From the sequence record PQ818760.1: a DNA stretch of 52,452 bases; one strand, given 5' to 3'. This DNA comes from Escherichia phage EcoM1. The position numbers and the translations under genes are program-made. Below are positions 14,688 to 51,398 of the stretch, one piece after another; position 1 is the first letter of the stretch; each line of letters opens with the position of its first letter. The notes beneath the pieces are model-generated. The model was not told the origin of the DNA, did not search any database, and was given only the letters and a program-made list of their open reading frames with translations.

Positions 14688-15046
14688 TTCTCTAACTCCT
14701 TAGCAGCAATGACTTCAAAGAACCCAGCCGCCTTGTAGTCAGAAACAGAAATAACTTTATAACGAAGGCCGTAGATAGTAAGGATAGACTTCATCGGCAT
14801 TTCAGTTCGGGAATGTACTTGCATGAATGCAGGTTGGCGCTCTCCGACTTCTGTAGCTTTAAGCGATTGACCGCTTACGCCAGAATCCCTGTCACCATAA
14901 GGTATGGGAGTACATCGGATGGGTTTCTTTGGAGCATATGAATCACCAACCCAATTATTTTTGTCATCGTAGTAACCTTCTTGATATACCTCAAGATACA
15001 TACGAGTGGTTGTGTAGCGGTTGAATGCTCGACGCTGGTTAATCAA
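14684..15046 (-). CDS. head-tail joining protein
   Basis: 120 aa, ATGA-coupled in the connector region between capsid and sheath genes. Confidence 0.3.
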   Translation of the reverse strand: MINQRRAFNRYTTTRMYLEVYQEGYYDDKNNWVGDSYAPKKPIRCTPIPYGDRDSGVSGQSLKATEVGERQPAFMQVHSRTEMPMKSILTIYGLRYKVISVSDYKAAGFFEVIAAKELEK

Positions 15047-15432
15047 AACTGTGACCCAGGGCTAACCCTCGGCCCAGCAAATGCCATTCGCCGCCATTGC
15101 AAGTAACGTTGACCGTACACAGTAGACATGAAATCAGCTTCAACATAAGGAATTGTTGAAATGATTCGGTCGCTAAACTCTACCTGAACATCGTCCACAT
15201 CGGTACGACTAACAGGCATAGCTGGCATTGCGGCATCACCAGGCATTAGGTCGTCAATTGTTGCAGACCAATGCGCTACAAGTGATGCCATAGCTGGGTC
15301 ATAAAACCCACACCAACGCGATTCGATTGTCCCCATGATAAGTTTCGCATCTTCAACTAATATGTCAAAACGCTCTGGGGTCATGTCAGCCATTGCCGGA
15401 TAACGTTTAACCAAATCGGTTAGTGTTATCAT
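15043..15432 (-). CDS. head-tail connector / head completion protein
   Basis: 129 aa in the connector region. Confidence 0.3.
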   Translation of the reverse strand: MITLTDLVKRYPAMADMTPERFDILVEDAKLIMGTIESRWCGFYDPAMASLVAHWSATIDDLMPGDAAMPAMPVSRTDVDDVQVEFSDRIISTIPYVEADFMSTVYGQRYLQWRRMAFAGPRVSPGSQF

Positions 15433-27351: not shown

Positions 27352-27597
27352 TTACAGTTGAGTGATAACTAGGGAGAAGTCCAGGTCGTTCATACAAGAG
27401 ATTAACTCTTGCTCATTGACGACAGGACCAGATAAAGTTTTAATGAATGCCTGATACATTGAATTGGTAGCATAATCACTTCCAAATAATGCTTCAACAT
27501 TCTCGGTAATTACAGACAGCACAGCTTCCCGTGCGTCTTCACCTTTCTTGACAAAATGGAAATGGTCCACTTTGTCGAATATAGATACAACAACCAT
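27352..27597 (-). CDS. hypothetical protein
   Basis: 81 aa coupled to the DNA polymerase stop. Confidence 0.35.
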   Translation of the reverse strand: MVVVSIFDKVDHFHFVKKGEDAREAVLSVITENVEALFGSDYATNSMYQAFIKTLSGPVVNEQELISCMNDLDFSLVITQL

Positions 27598-32300: not shown

Positions 32301-33244
32301 GTTTCTCTCCGGTTAAAATTTAAGTAAGTGTCCTGACGTGGACTATTACGAACATTACAATACATTGGCTTAAATGGTGTTTCCACTGCGGCCAAGACAC
32401 TTATTAAATTTGATTCGAACCGCCCAAGTGAATCAGCCTTGTTTATGGGGACCATCGGGGAAAAGTATAAACCCGCCTAATGCTCGCATCATGTTTGAAC
32501 ATTAAGAACCCTCGACTTGCATATTTCATGTGTATAGGAACATAGTCTGGATTTTGAATCCAGCTAACTTCGGGATGAGGAGTAACCCAAACGAAAGCCT
32601 GAACTTTCTTTCTGCACAACACAATCAGCGCAACTAAGCCGTATCGCTACGGTATGCCAGACGCTCGCATGAGCCTTTTGAACAGAGGCATAACTGTTTG
32701 TTAAAAGTTGGGAGGGTGGAATGCGACCACCTACGATACAATATCGTCCACAGCACTTTCTCCCGGGTATTTGGTGGATTCGGTGAACGATAAGTTCACA
32801 ATTACACAGTCGGCCTCGGATGCTTCATCCCTATCCCATCGTGCAGGTTTAATTAACTCTACGAATCCATTGAATTTGGTGACCGATACGTTGGTCAGAC
32901 GCTGTGGCCTTTACGCGGCCAACGTGCCATTAATGCTGGCAAGACAGAGCTAACGTTCTCAAGCACTTTGGCGAGGATGTTCTCGGACACTGTTTTAGGA
33001 AGTGACCACCTGAACTTTCTCGCGTTCAATACGAGGCAGCAATTTTAATTGTTATGCCCAGAGCAACTTGCAGGTTTGTTTGAGTTGGAGTCCTGCTTCC
33101 AAACGCATGGGCTTACACCATCACCGCAATAAGTTGCTAGAGTCTCGTTATTTAAAGTCGCGCACTCCCTCGACTATAATGTACGTGTATTTAAAGTCCC
33201 GTACCGGACTGCCAAATGAAATGCTATGGCGAGCATTTGTTCAC

Positions 33245-33454
33245 TCACTGTCGGGTAAGTTTCGAACACTTTTGTGCCCACGTTTCATTGTGGACTAAAA
33301 TCTGTGTTTTGGTTTCGCGTGACAGTATTTTCACTTCTGCAACATCCAAATATATTGGTTGTGCAATTAAGCAATAATCACTTACGAACCCACTTTGAGA
33401 GCAACTCACTATCGACATTGCTATCAGAACTGCTAGACACTTCTTTCTGAACAT
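33245..33454 (-). CDS. o-spanin (Rz1-like outer-membrane lipoprotein)
   Basis: 69 aa with lipoprotein signal ending SIVSC (lipobox-like), two further Cys; starts inside the i-spanin gene in another frame and extends beyond it. Confidence 0.5.
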   Translation of the reverse strand: MFRKKCLAVLIAMSIVSCSQSGFVSDYCLIAQPIYLDVAEVKILSRETKTQILVHNETWAQKCSKLTRQ

Positions 33455-33614
33455 GCGATTTAATCTCGATAGATTCTTTTAATGAATCTAGTTGCTTCTC
33501 TTTGGCTTCCTGACGCTCCTCGGCTTTGCCTGAGCTTTTGCCTTTGAGGAACACTGCAATAAGAATACCAAATGCAGTCAGGACGCCAAGAACTATTGAT
33601 TTAAGCTGTTGCAT
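33378..33614 (-). CDS. i-spanin (Rz-like)
   Basis: 78 aa: N-terminal transmembrane helix (IVLGVLTAFGILIAVFL) followed by a charged coiled-coil-like region; overlapped by the o-spanin frame. Confidence 0.55.
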   Translation of the reverse strand: MQQLKSIVLGVLTAFGILIAVFLKGKSSGKAEERQEAKEKQLDSLKESIEIKSHVQKEVSSSSDSNVDSELLSKWVRK

Positions 33615-33622
33615 AAATCACC

Positions 33623-33763
33623 TTAGATGGCACACGCACCGCTTGAGCAGTCATTATCGCCAGCACCAGGAACGATTGCTTCTTCGTCCTGCTTCTTCTT
33701 GAGTTCTTCAATTGCTTCTTCGGCAGCACCGAAGTCCAAATTGTCTAGTGCATCAATGTCCAT
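33623..33763 (-). CDS. small acidic protein (46 aa)
   Basis: ATG at 33761-33763 to TAA at 33623-33625, found by hand (below the track threshold); sits between the tRNA-like gene and the spanins. Confidence 0.2.
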   Translation of the reverse strand: MDIDALDNLDFGAAEEAIEELKKKQDEEAIVPGAGDNDCSSGACAI

Positions 33764-33789
33764 GAGGACTCCATGTTATTGTTGAAGTG

Positions 33790-33884
33790 GGTGGACGAGG
33801 TTGGATTCGAACCAACGACACATCTGTCGAACAGATTGCTCTACCTGACTAAGCTCTGGAGCAGACCTTCTGAGCTACTCGTCC
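33790..33884 (-). tRNA. tRNA-like gene, possibly tRNA-Leu(CAG), non-canonical D-arm
   Basis: Perfect 7-bp acceptor stem (GGACGAG/CTCGTCC), canonical T-arm GTTGG-TTCGAAT-CCAAC, discriminator A then CC; candidate anticodon loop GT-CAG-GT with a long variable hairpin. I could not fold a standard D-stem by hand. Confidence 0.45.
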
Positions 33885-34782
33885 GAATAAGGTGGGGTTT
33901 TGGTAACGCAGGTTTTCCCGAACTGCGAGGCTTGTAGAATCCGTGAGTCGCCTACTGTGTTTTGACATAACGTGGGATTGATGGTCCCGACTCACTTCAT
34001 CTCAGGTACGAGGCACTACTTTGCGAGTGCAAGCAGGTGTTGAACCCAAGTACCAACAGGCAACCTGATTTAATCTACCTTTGTAGATACCATCGGTTAT
34101 GAGCAGTTTATTTCCATGCTCAGGGCAACTCACTTTAGGGTGAATTAGGTTACGCAGTGCAGCTTCGAAGTCGCTGCCACAGGCTTGAGATTCCTGTGTG
34201 GAGGGAAATCCAGAGGAGCACTTCCCCAAGGAGTTACGTTTCAAATTGGCATAGCTTCTCACACTAAACCAATTGAAGACATTCCAGTGTGCTCGTCCGT
34301 CCTCTAGAAATATCCAACTGCATAATTAAGTTTGTACTCTGTCACATCCCCACGCGCACTGGAGGACTTAAGCCTGCTTTGCATCGCAGAATACAAATTA
34401 ATTATTGCTCCGATTTATTAATCACATCTCGAAGCCACAATGCGCCAAATTTGGTTACGTGGGATTGGAAGACCACGGAGAGGACTTAAATTTAATTAAG
34501 CCGCAACTCGCATTTCAGAATCATTTGCATTTATTTTAAATGAATAAAACAGTCGCAATAACTTCGGGCAGTTTAGGCCCGTCGTAAGACTCAGAAAACT
34601 ACTTCAATGAACACTCTTGTCTGGGCCACGAGATTGGGCATCGGCCTACCTCCCAACTCTAATCACAAGAATGCTCATTGAAGCCCACTCTTCCTTTCAG
34701 AATGGGTTCAAGGCAGCACCGGAAAACTTCCAGTGCATGCCAGATCGATTTAGCTTAGTCTCTCAAGTTTGCCATCGGCAAC

Positions 34783-35121: not shown

Positions 35122-35200
35122 TTGTATATACCTTATATTGAATAGTTTTGCACGCCACGGTGACGTGACTTAGATAAAAATTAAAGAGCCTTTCTCTTTC

Positions 35201-35221
35201 CACATCCAACTAATGTTTCAG
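35201..35221 (-). promoter_or_regulatory. phage promoter-like element
   Basis: + strand cacatccaactaatgtttcag; gene-strand reading ctgaaACATTAGTTGGATGTG; 80 nt upstream of the ATG at 35121. Confidence 0.4.
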
Positions 35222-51056: not shown

Positions 51057-51398
51057 TCATCGTGCCTTCTTGAACCACGTTAAAGGGTTAAGTTGTTTGA
51101 TTGCGCCAGAGAAGCTTTCCCTGACAGTTGTGATAATGAGGTTTGCACCGATGACACCAATCACGATAGCCAGAACTAACTGCATTGTGACGTTAGTGGT
51201 GAAAGTTTCAAACGTGCCAGCAACATGAAAGGCAAACAAGCCAATCAAGCTGCATAGCGCTGCATCCAGCAACGCTTTGCTTAAACCTTCACTTTCGTAT
51301 GCACCACGGATTAAAGCCGTCAGACCAGCCAGCAGCCCATGCCATACGCCATACTGGTGCATCAGGTCCACAAACATCTGAATGGATAAGCGTTCCAT
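51057..51398 (-). CDS. holin, lambda-S-like class I
   Basis: From MERLSIQMF...: three hydrophobic segments and LIRGAYESEGLSKALLDAALCSLIGLFAF aligning with lambda S ([28 protein letters not shown]). An in-frame upstream Met (MPSGNGWLKEIM) gives a possible dual-start antiholin form; track ORF extends to 51506. Confidence 0.7.
   Translation of the reverse strand: MERLSIQMFVDLMHQYGVWHGLLAGLTALIRGAYESEGLSKALLDAALCSLIGLFAFHVAGTFETFTTNVTMQLVLAIVIGVIGANLIITTVRESFSGAIKQLNPLTWFKKAR

Follow-up and report, generated by a model that had tools for sequence, protein, structure and literature searches.

Escherichia phage EcoM1 (PQ818760.1) carries, far from its holin gene, two short ORFs that overlap in different reading frames, and the locus raises the question of whether they encode a two-component spanin, which acts at the final step of lysis to destroy the outer membrane, or a pair of envelope proteins with some other role. 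An earlier note on this DNA had described them as an overlapping Rz/Rz1-type spanin pair located away from holin and endolysin. The ORFs themselves, their targeting signals, the conservation of both frames and the homology to gene pairs of lysis cassettes form the basis of the reading presented here, according to which the two products very probably constitute such a spanin. The pair is already known bioinformatically, from the near-identical phage phiEcoM-GJ1. Positions refer to the window, by which we mean the whole stretch of 52,452 nt that was analysed; all window genes lie on the minus strand (Table 1).

Table 1. Position of the spanin genes and of other features of the EcoM1 window
Feature	Position	Strand	Remarks
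i-spanin gene, 78 aa	33378..33614	minus	ORF listing, ATG start
o-spanin gene, 69-aa precursor, 52 aa mature	33245..33454	minus	ORF listing, ATG start
Dual-coding overlap, 77 nt	33378..33454	minus	Last 25 i-spanin codons; o-spanin signal peptide and first mature residues
Very acidic ORF, 46 aa, MDIDALDNLDFGAAEEAIEELKKKQDEEAIVPGAGDNDCSSGACAI	33623..33763	minus	Ends 9 nt before the i-spanin start; good Shine-Dalgarno
Phage-RNA-polymerase promoter match, AAACATTAGTTGGATGTGGA	35199..35218	minus	Position weight matrix score 29.8; nearest upstream of the spanins
M15-family peptidase, putative endolysin, 138 aa	38630..39046	minus	PF13539 E=1.4e-8; phrog_465 'endolysin' E=7.8e-55; phiEcoM-GJ1 gp21
Putative cell-wall hydrolase, 184 aa	50485..51039	minus	PF07486 Hydrolase_2 E=1.1e-15; phrog_938 'endolysin'; phiEcoM-GJ1 gp74 'endolysin'
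Putative holin, lambda S-like family	51057..51398	minus	PF05106 E=6.8e-8; phrog_126 'holin/anti-holin' E=1.2e-17; phiEcoM-GJ1 gp73
ORF-poor region	32301..34782		
Stretch without convincing ORF	32301..33244		~0.94 kb, directly downstream of the o-spanin gene
tRNA-Arg(UCG)-like gene	33786..33880	minus	~20-nt D-loop insertion
Conserved block	~33900..33995		Contains the 19-mer
19-mer TTCTACAAGCCTCGCAGTT	33921..33939	minus	Invariant in six genus-level Chaseviridae sequences
tmRNA-tag-like module	34403..34608	minus	~0.9 kb upstream of the spanins; tag frame 34496..34528

Gene organization and predicted products

The 78-aa and 69-aa ORFs pointed out in the earlier note were both recovered on the minus strand, in different frames. 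The o-spanin start is located 160 nt after that of the i-spanin gene and is consequently in the +1 frame. A Shine-Dalgarno sequence, AAGGTG, precedes the i-spanin ATG by 5 nt and only a weak GAG is found upstream of the o-spanin ATG; ribosome-binding sites are annotated in the record of phage Mangalitsa.

The i-spanin lacks cysteine throughout and contains a single hydrophobic stretch, at residues 7-25 (Kyte-Doolittle mean 2.35); the ~53 residues that follow this stretch are charged, 11 of them being basic and 11 acidic. Single-sequence AlphaFold2 models of both products were used for secondary structure only; that of the i-spanin, of moderate confidence (mean pLDDT 72.8, pTM 0.30), places helices at residues 2-26, 31-61 and 69-77, and a coiled coil has been catalogued at residues 26-58 of the phiEcoM-GJ1 i-spanin (SpaninDB, PMC6139136). 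The description of the product as a coiled-coil protein with an N-terminal transmembrane segment is borne out by these features, which point to an N-terminal transmembrane helix followed by a helical periplasmic domain and suggest an N-in/C-out topology.

The o-spanin begins with MFRKK, having three K/R among its first seven residues, and continues with a hydrophobic core and the lipobox AVLIAMSIVS-C18, which satisfies the PROSITE PS51257-type rule and is followed by Ser, not Asp, at position +2; the assignment of this product as a lipoprotein, also made in the earlier note, finds support in all these elements. Its AlphaFold2 model is of low confidence (pLDDT 51) and predicts a C-terminal helix. 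In the mature protein, whose periplasmic part comprises ~51 residues, two further cysteines occur, C28 and C63, which provide the periplasmic cysteine that two-component spanins require, the disulfide itself being a prediction. Among catalogued spanins, no combination occurs more often than an i-spanin devoid of cysteines with an o-spanin that has two, and the combined periplasmic length of ~104 residues lies at the short end of the catalogued range of 62-300, yet within it. Every sequence-level trait expected of an overlapped two-component spanin according to Kongari et al. 2018 is present in the pair.

Prior record and family assignment

In their survey of 677 phage genomes, Kongari et al. 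2018 (PMC6139136; SpaninDB) listed phiEcoM-GJ1 among the phages with two-component spanins. The SpaninDB entry, of type 'ovl', gives 14724-14961 and 14884-15094 for the two genes, with an overlap of 77 nt and products of 78 and 69 aa; the i-spanin appears as a singleton and the o-spanin in a family of two with that of Pectobacterium phage PM1 (PMC6139136). The EcoM1 pair has the same product lengths, overlap and +1 frame, and likewise sits between a tRNA-like gene and the thymidylate synthase gene, the difference being one amino-acid substitution per protein. A protein is assigned to a SpaninDB family if it shares at least 40% identity with a member across at least 40% of the length, and the EcoM1 products are 98.7% (i-spanin) and 98.6% (o-spanin) identical to those of phiEcoM-GJ1, with 43% identity to the PM1 o-spanin. 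More generally, the 4 kb around the pair are 93-97% identical to Escherichia phages ST32, phiEcoM-GJ1, TH53, DE15 and others, which are members of the genus Carltongylesvirus of the family Chaseviridae, to which the EcoM1 window likewise belongs.

Among profile collections, PHROG recognized both products as 'Rz-like spanin', phrog_1026 matching residues 1-78 of the i-spanin (E=3.3e-20) and phrog_1275 residues 1-67 of the o-spanin (E=9.8e-18). No Pfam family, the Rz and Rz1 models included, reached the cut-off with either product, and the NCBIfam and PDB sequence searches gave no meaningful match for them. The label Rz/Rz1-type proposed in the earlier note consequently holds for the architecture but not for the sequence, which is without match to the Pfam Rz/Rz1 families. 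As for annotated records, the phiEcoM-GJ1 i-spanin (gp31) is named 'Rz-like spanin' in RefSeq, where the overlapping o-spanin ORF is unannotated, and the records of Mangalitsa, 4HA13, PM1 and 2KOFFS give a spanin annotation to both genes. The genome announcements of Mangalitsa and Myduc do not mention lysis genes.

Conservation of both reading frames

Both frames are intact in all 13 Carltongylesvirus genomes that made up the set for the diversity and codon analyses. Among them nucleotide diversity is 0.014 within the overlap (7 of 77 sites variable), compared with 0.076 in the segment coding for the i-spanin only and 0.056 in that coding for the o-spanin only. This ~4-5-fold lower diversity is the signature of two reading frames under simultaneous constraint, and the maintenance of an intact double frame is far beyond chance. 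A multi-base change in the overlap of phage FXie-2024a is synonymous in the i-spanin frame (Ser to Ser) and replaces two residues of the o-spanin signal peptide, while at its far C-terminal end the o-spanin tolerates change, as seen in a late frameshift in MLP1. In 2KOFFS, an HNH endonuclease gene lies directly downstream of the o-spanin gene.

Since many public records annotate the 78-aa gene only, it could be argued that this gene alone is real and that the 69-aa frame is accidental, being held open by constraint on the first gene. However, gene callers very often miss embedded or overlapped o-spanin genes (Kongari et al., PMC6139136), and the o-spanin frame extends 133 nt past the i-spanin stop. 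Within this segment, of which 118 nt were scored once the variable last five codons had been left out, codon position 3 varies at 11 sites and position 1 at seven, with position 2 varying at none. Moreover, the two genes overlap by just 4 nt in 4HA13, Erwinia phage Faunus and Aeromonas phage phiA050, and the lipoprotein ORF is intact despite this, so that its conservation is independent of the overlap. In other genera, as well as in lambdoid and Pseudomonas phages, the ORF is still present together with its lipobox and three cysteines, at identities of 33-43%. With the maintenance of the second frame, on which the earlier note had made its proposal depend, established in this way, we consider an accidental 69-aa frame extremely improbable, and take both genes as real.

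Since the word index of a very large database does not cope with products this short, searching a large protein collection with each of them returned just 2 and 3 near-identical matches, and homologues were sought instead with tblastn against phage records and by scanning IMG/VR for a pattern. The o-spanin gave tblastn matches in 78 phage records, and the IMG/VR scan yielded at least 434 tblastn-confirmed relatives. The presence of the lipobox cysteine in relatives had been set beforehand as a test that could count against the pair, and this residue was found in every relative examined, being invariant in the 13 Carltongylesvirus genomes, in 4HA13, Faunus, phiA050 and PM1, in HK639 and mEp390, and in Pseudomonas phage AF. 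The invariant o-spanin columns in the alignment across genera, lambdoid phages and AF are C18, C28, I34, K49, H55, N56, W59 and C63. A PS51257-type lipobox, a residue other than Asp at +2 and exactly two periplasmic cysteines are retained in 80 of 80 IMG/VR relatives. The overlap, whose conservation the earlier note had asked to be checked, is present in 70 of the 71 IMG/VR loci in which the i-spanin could be resolved; in the other nine of the 80 loci, automatic detection missed the i-spanin since the longest-ORF start lay too far upstream, and these loci were not counted as absences.

Homologues in lysis cassettes and comparison with known spanins

The relatives outside the genus place the EcoM1 pair in a functional context. 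In the lambdoid phages HK639 and mEp390 the homologous pair comes directly after two holin genes and the endolysin gene; the counterpart in Pseudomonas phage AF is located after the endolysin gene. The o-spanins of these three phages are 33-36% and their i-spanins 28-30% identical to those of EcoM1, all of them being short proteins encoded by overlapped genes; i-spanin identities overall range over 28-41%. In the i-spanins the membrane helix is followed by a shared G-x-S-(S/K) motif, and their C-termini have VD-x-EL...W-x-R in common; the o-spanins share the motif C...C-x5-PI...QI-x-x-HN-x-x-W...C. The difference resides in the location, which is a classical lysis cassette in those phages, whereas the EcoM1 pair is isolated in the early/middle region. 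Among the IMG/VR relatives, no fewer than 45 loci have an endolysin gene immediately before the pair: of the 49 loci with an extracted upstream ORF, 45 have ORFs that group into two clusters, one represented by a GH108 + PG_binding_3 muramidase and the other by a GH19 lysin.

Compared with lambda Rz/Rz1, the EcoM1 pair has the same design, in which a type II protein of the inner membrane, helical in its periplasmic domain, is combined with a small outer-membrane lipoprotein encoded in the +1 frame of the same DNA, with periplasmic cysteines, but no sequence homology is detectable between both systems. The lambda Rz1 gene is fully embedded in Rz, whereas the EcoM1 o-spanin gene extends past the i-spanin gene. 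Rz has 153 aa, two coiled-coil segments and two cysteines, in contrast to the single long helix of the much shorter, cysteine-free EcoM1 i-spanin, and mature Rz1 is proline-rich and unstructured, unlike the EcoM1 o-spanin with its one Pro and predicted C-terminal helix. The T4 proteins PseT.3 and PseT.2 resemble the EcoM1 products in having no cysteine in the i-spanin and two periplasmic cysteines in the o-spanin, although the T4 genes are separated, not overlapped, and no sequence similarity was observed.

Lysis loci and transcription

The EcoM1 pair lies 17.4 kb from the holin gene and 5.0 kb from the M15 lysin gene in window coordinates, in good agreement with the 17 and 5 kb given in the earlier note, and the region described there as an ORF-poor island is indeed poor in ORFs. 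The distribution of the lysis functions over three loci, also proposed in that note, proved right, but the second lysin, the Hydrolase_2/SleB-like protein encoded directly downstream of the holin gene, had gone unmentioned. EcoM1 carries two predicted peptidoglycan hydrolases that are unrelated to each other; the M15 lysin gene is located in the early region. The Hydrolase_2 lysin has an N-terminal hydrophobic segment (residues 6-24), which might act as a signal peptide or as a signal-anchor-release domain. Relative to the phiEcoM-GJ1 record the window is circularly permuted, the right end of that record (holin, lysin, NrdB) being joined to its left end (RNA polymerase) at window ~48.7-49.4 kb; on the linear map of phiEcoM-GJ1, holin and spanin genes are ~36 kb apart.

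Phage-RNA-polymerase promoters were located with a position weight matrix derived from the nine that are annotated in phiEcoM-GJ1. The match nearest upstream of the spanin genes is probably the start of the transcript that carries them; from this promoter to the spanins the minus strand showed no terminator-like sites, and the next minus-strand promoter match downstream occurs at 27494. A scan for sigma-70 promoters and terminators around the spanin genes gave no excess over shuffled sequence, and none on the coding strand. According to this arrangement, the spanins would be transcribed with the block of thymidylate synthase, primase and polymerase genes, not with the late genes.

The position of the pair in the early/middle region, with a replication-module promoter upstream and the holin gene far away, could suggest that the products, while being a real inner-membrane protein and a real outer-membrane lipoprotein, serve another envelope role, such as superinfection exclusion or a block of DNA entry like that of Cor or Llp. 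However, homologues of both subunits fill the spanin slot of lysis cassettes in unrelated phages, and the obligatory pairing of a type II membrane protein with a lipoprotein whose gene overlaps its own, along with two conserved periplasmic cysteines, is the spanin pattern. Placement in a lysis cassette, which is seen for the homologues in HK639, mEp390, AF and at least 45 IMG/VR loci and is absent for EcoM1, is usual for spanin genes, not obligatory. The spanin genes of T4 are unlinked to its holin and endolysin genes and represent the textbook case of dispersed spanins. Dispersed spanin genes were already known, T4 being catalogued with separated pseT.3 and pseT.2 (PMC6139136). Overall, we regard a different envelope role as quite improbable, although it is the principal rival to the spanin reading.

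Directly upstream of the i-spanin gene, the 46-aa acidic ORF, for which Pfam, NCBIfam and PHROG gave no assignment, is also conserved in part: its N-terminal MD(I/L)D...F and C-terminal NDC-x(2-4)-C-x-I motifs are kept in Faunus and phiA050, in which its counterpart overlaps the i-spanin start. A further possibility would be that the spanins and this acidic protein form a conserved three-gene module, expressed with the replication genes and having a role beyond terminal lysis, such as a regulated or early remodelling of the envelope, but we deem this unlikely. In the spanin model, complexes stay inert until peptidoglycan is removed, and expression as part of an early or replication unit is therefore compatible with it.

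Proposed mode of action

The mechanism that we envisage for the EcoM1 spanin is modelled on that of lambda Rz-Rz1 as described in PMC6139136, so that complex formation, disulfides, membrane fusion and the timing of expression are proposed by analogy. The N-terminal helix of the i-spanin would insert into the inner membrane with the N-terminus in and the C-terminus out, and the periplasmic parts of i-spanin and o-spanin would bind each other via their C-terminal regions, forming a complex threaded through the peptidoglycan mesh in which C28 and C63 of the o-spanin might supply disulfide links. These complexes would remain inert until the holin fires and a lysin removes the peptidoglycan. Once freed, they would be able to move and collapse, bringing together the inner and outer membranes, which would fuse, and the cell would burst. 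Since a spanin complex would be harmless as long as the wall is intact, its genes can sit in a replication-gene unit far from the holin gene.

Annotation of the spanin genes in public records

As an additional member of a well-sampled genus carrying a catalogued gene pair, the EcoM1 spanin is in itself of little significance. Its practical value concerns annotation, since many public Carltongylesvirus records omit or shorten the o-spanin and others mislabel the i-spanin. The records of MLP1, FXie-2024a and Pel53 either lack the o-spanin or have it cut down to what lies beyond the i-spanin stop. The i-spanin appears as 'L-alanyl-D-glutamate peptidase' in Pel53 and as 'endolysin' in the PYps phages. 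The genome of 'Staphylococcus phage Pel53' itself belongs to the Chaseviridae, and its spanin region shares 92.5% identity with the one found in the EcoM1 coliphage group. Records with annotation problems include PP952070.1 and MW147598.1. In HK639 and mEp390, the RefSeq o-spanin is mis-started, and the open frame upstream supplies MYS(R/K)LL...LIASC. Because this family of short spanins is widespread in enterobacterial prophages, as indicated by the IMG/VR matches, hundreds of annotations are concerned.

RNA features of the ORF-poor island

The ORF-poor island holds features more interesting than the spanins, among which a tmRNA-tag-like module deserves a look of its own. Its tag frame is start-less and reads GCA AAT GAT TCT GAA ATG CGA GTT GCG GCT TAA, that is ANDSEMRVAA*. 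Immediately before this frame stands AAAAUAAAU, and a hairpin encloses the stop codon; both features resemble the tag region of bacterial tmRNA. Third-position changes leave the peptide ANDSEMRVAA unaltered in 4HA13, phiA050 and an IMG/VR contig, and no in-frame start codon occurs upstream of the tag in phiEcoM-GJ1, 4HA13 or phiA050. Several hairpins with compensatory changes (covariation) were observed in the module, and a scan of IMG/VR with its exact pattern gave matches only in Chaseviridae contigs of ~52 kb. Rfam returned sub-threshold matches only, to the permuted and alphaproteobacterial tmRNA models (20.3 bits vs a gathering score of 47), ARAGORN called no tmRNA, and a tRNA-like domain with a G3:U70 pair was looked for in the module and not found. 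No mention of the ANDSEMRVAA tag was found in the literature. The module could represent a phage tmRNA that is divergent or split, or else imitate the host ssrA.

Between this module and the spanins lies the tRNA-Arg-like gene, whose D-loop insertion is conserved across the genus, with sequence variation. ARAGORN called nothing in the EcoM1 window and reported the phiEcoM-GJ1 and ST32 versions as a 95-nt 'tRNA-Leu(cag)', and the Rfam tRNA model matched over positions 9-63 only, with 27.9 bits, below the gathering score of 29. The phiEcoM-GJ1 record states of this gene that it 'may contain an intron'. Degenerate tRNA-like elements also occur in the same island of other genera, at positions 232-315 of the Faunus locus (L010) and 816-859 of that of phiA050 (L011).

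The conserved block upstream of the tRNA-like gene looks like part of a structured RNA: a long-range stem formed by GTGAGTCG...CGACTCAC precedes the invariant 19-mer, and after the 19-mer comes a hairpin, CGCAG...CTGCG, whose loop varies.

On the other side of the pair, the stretch that follows the o-spanin gene is annotated with nothing in most records. It matches 59 records, with 84-98% identity among the matches listed and a few more distant Erwinia and Aeromonas phages, and represents a conserved non-coding stretch, which is unusual for a phage of ~90% coding density.
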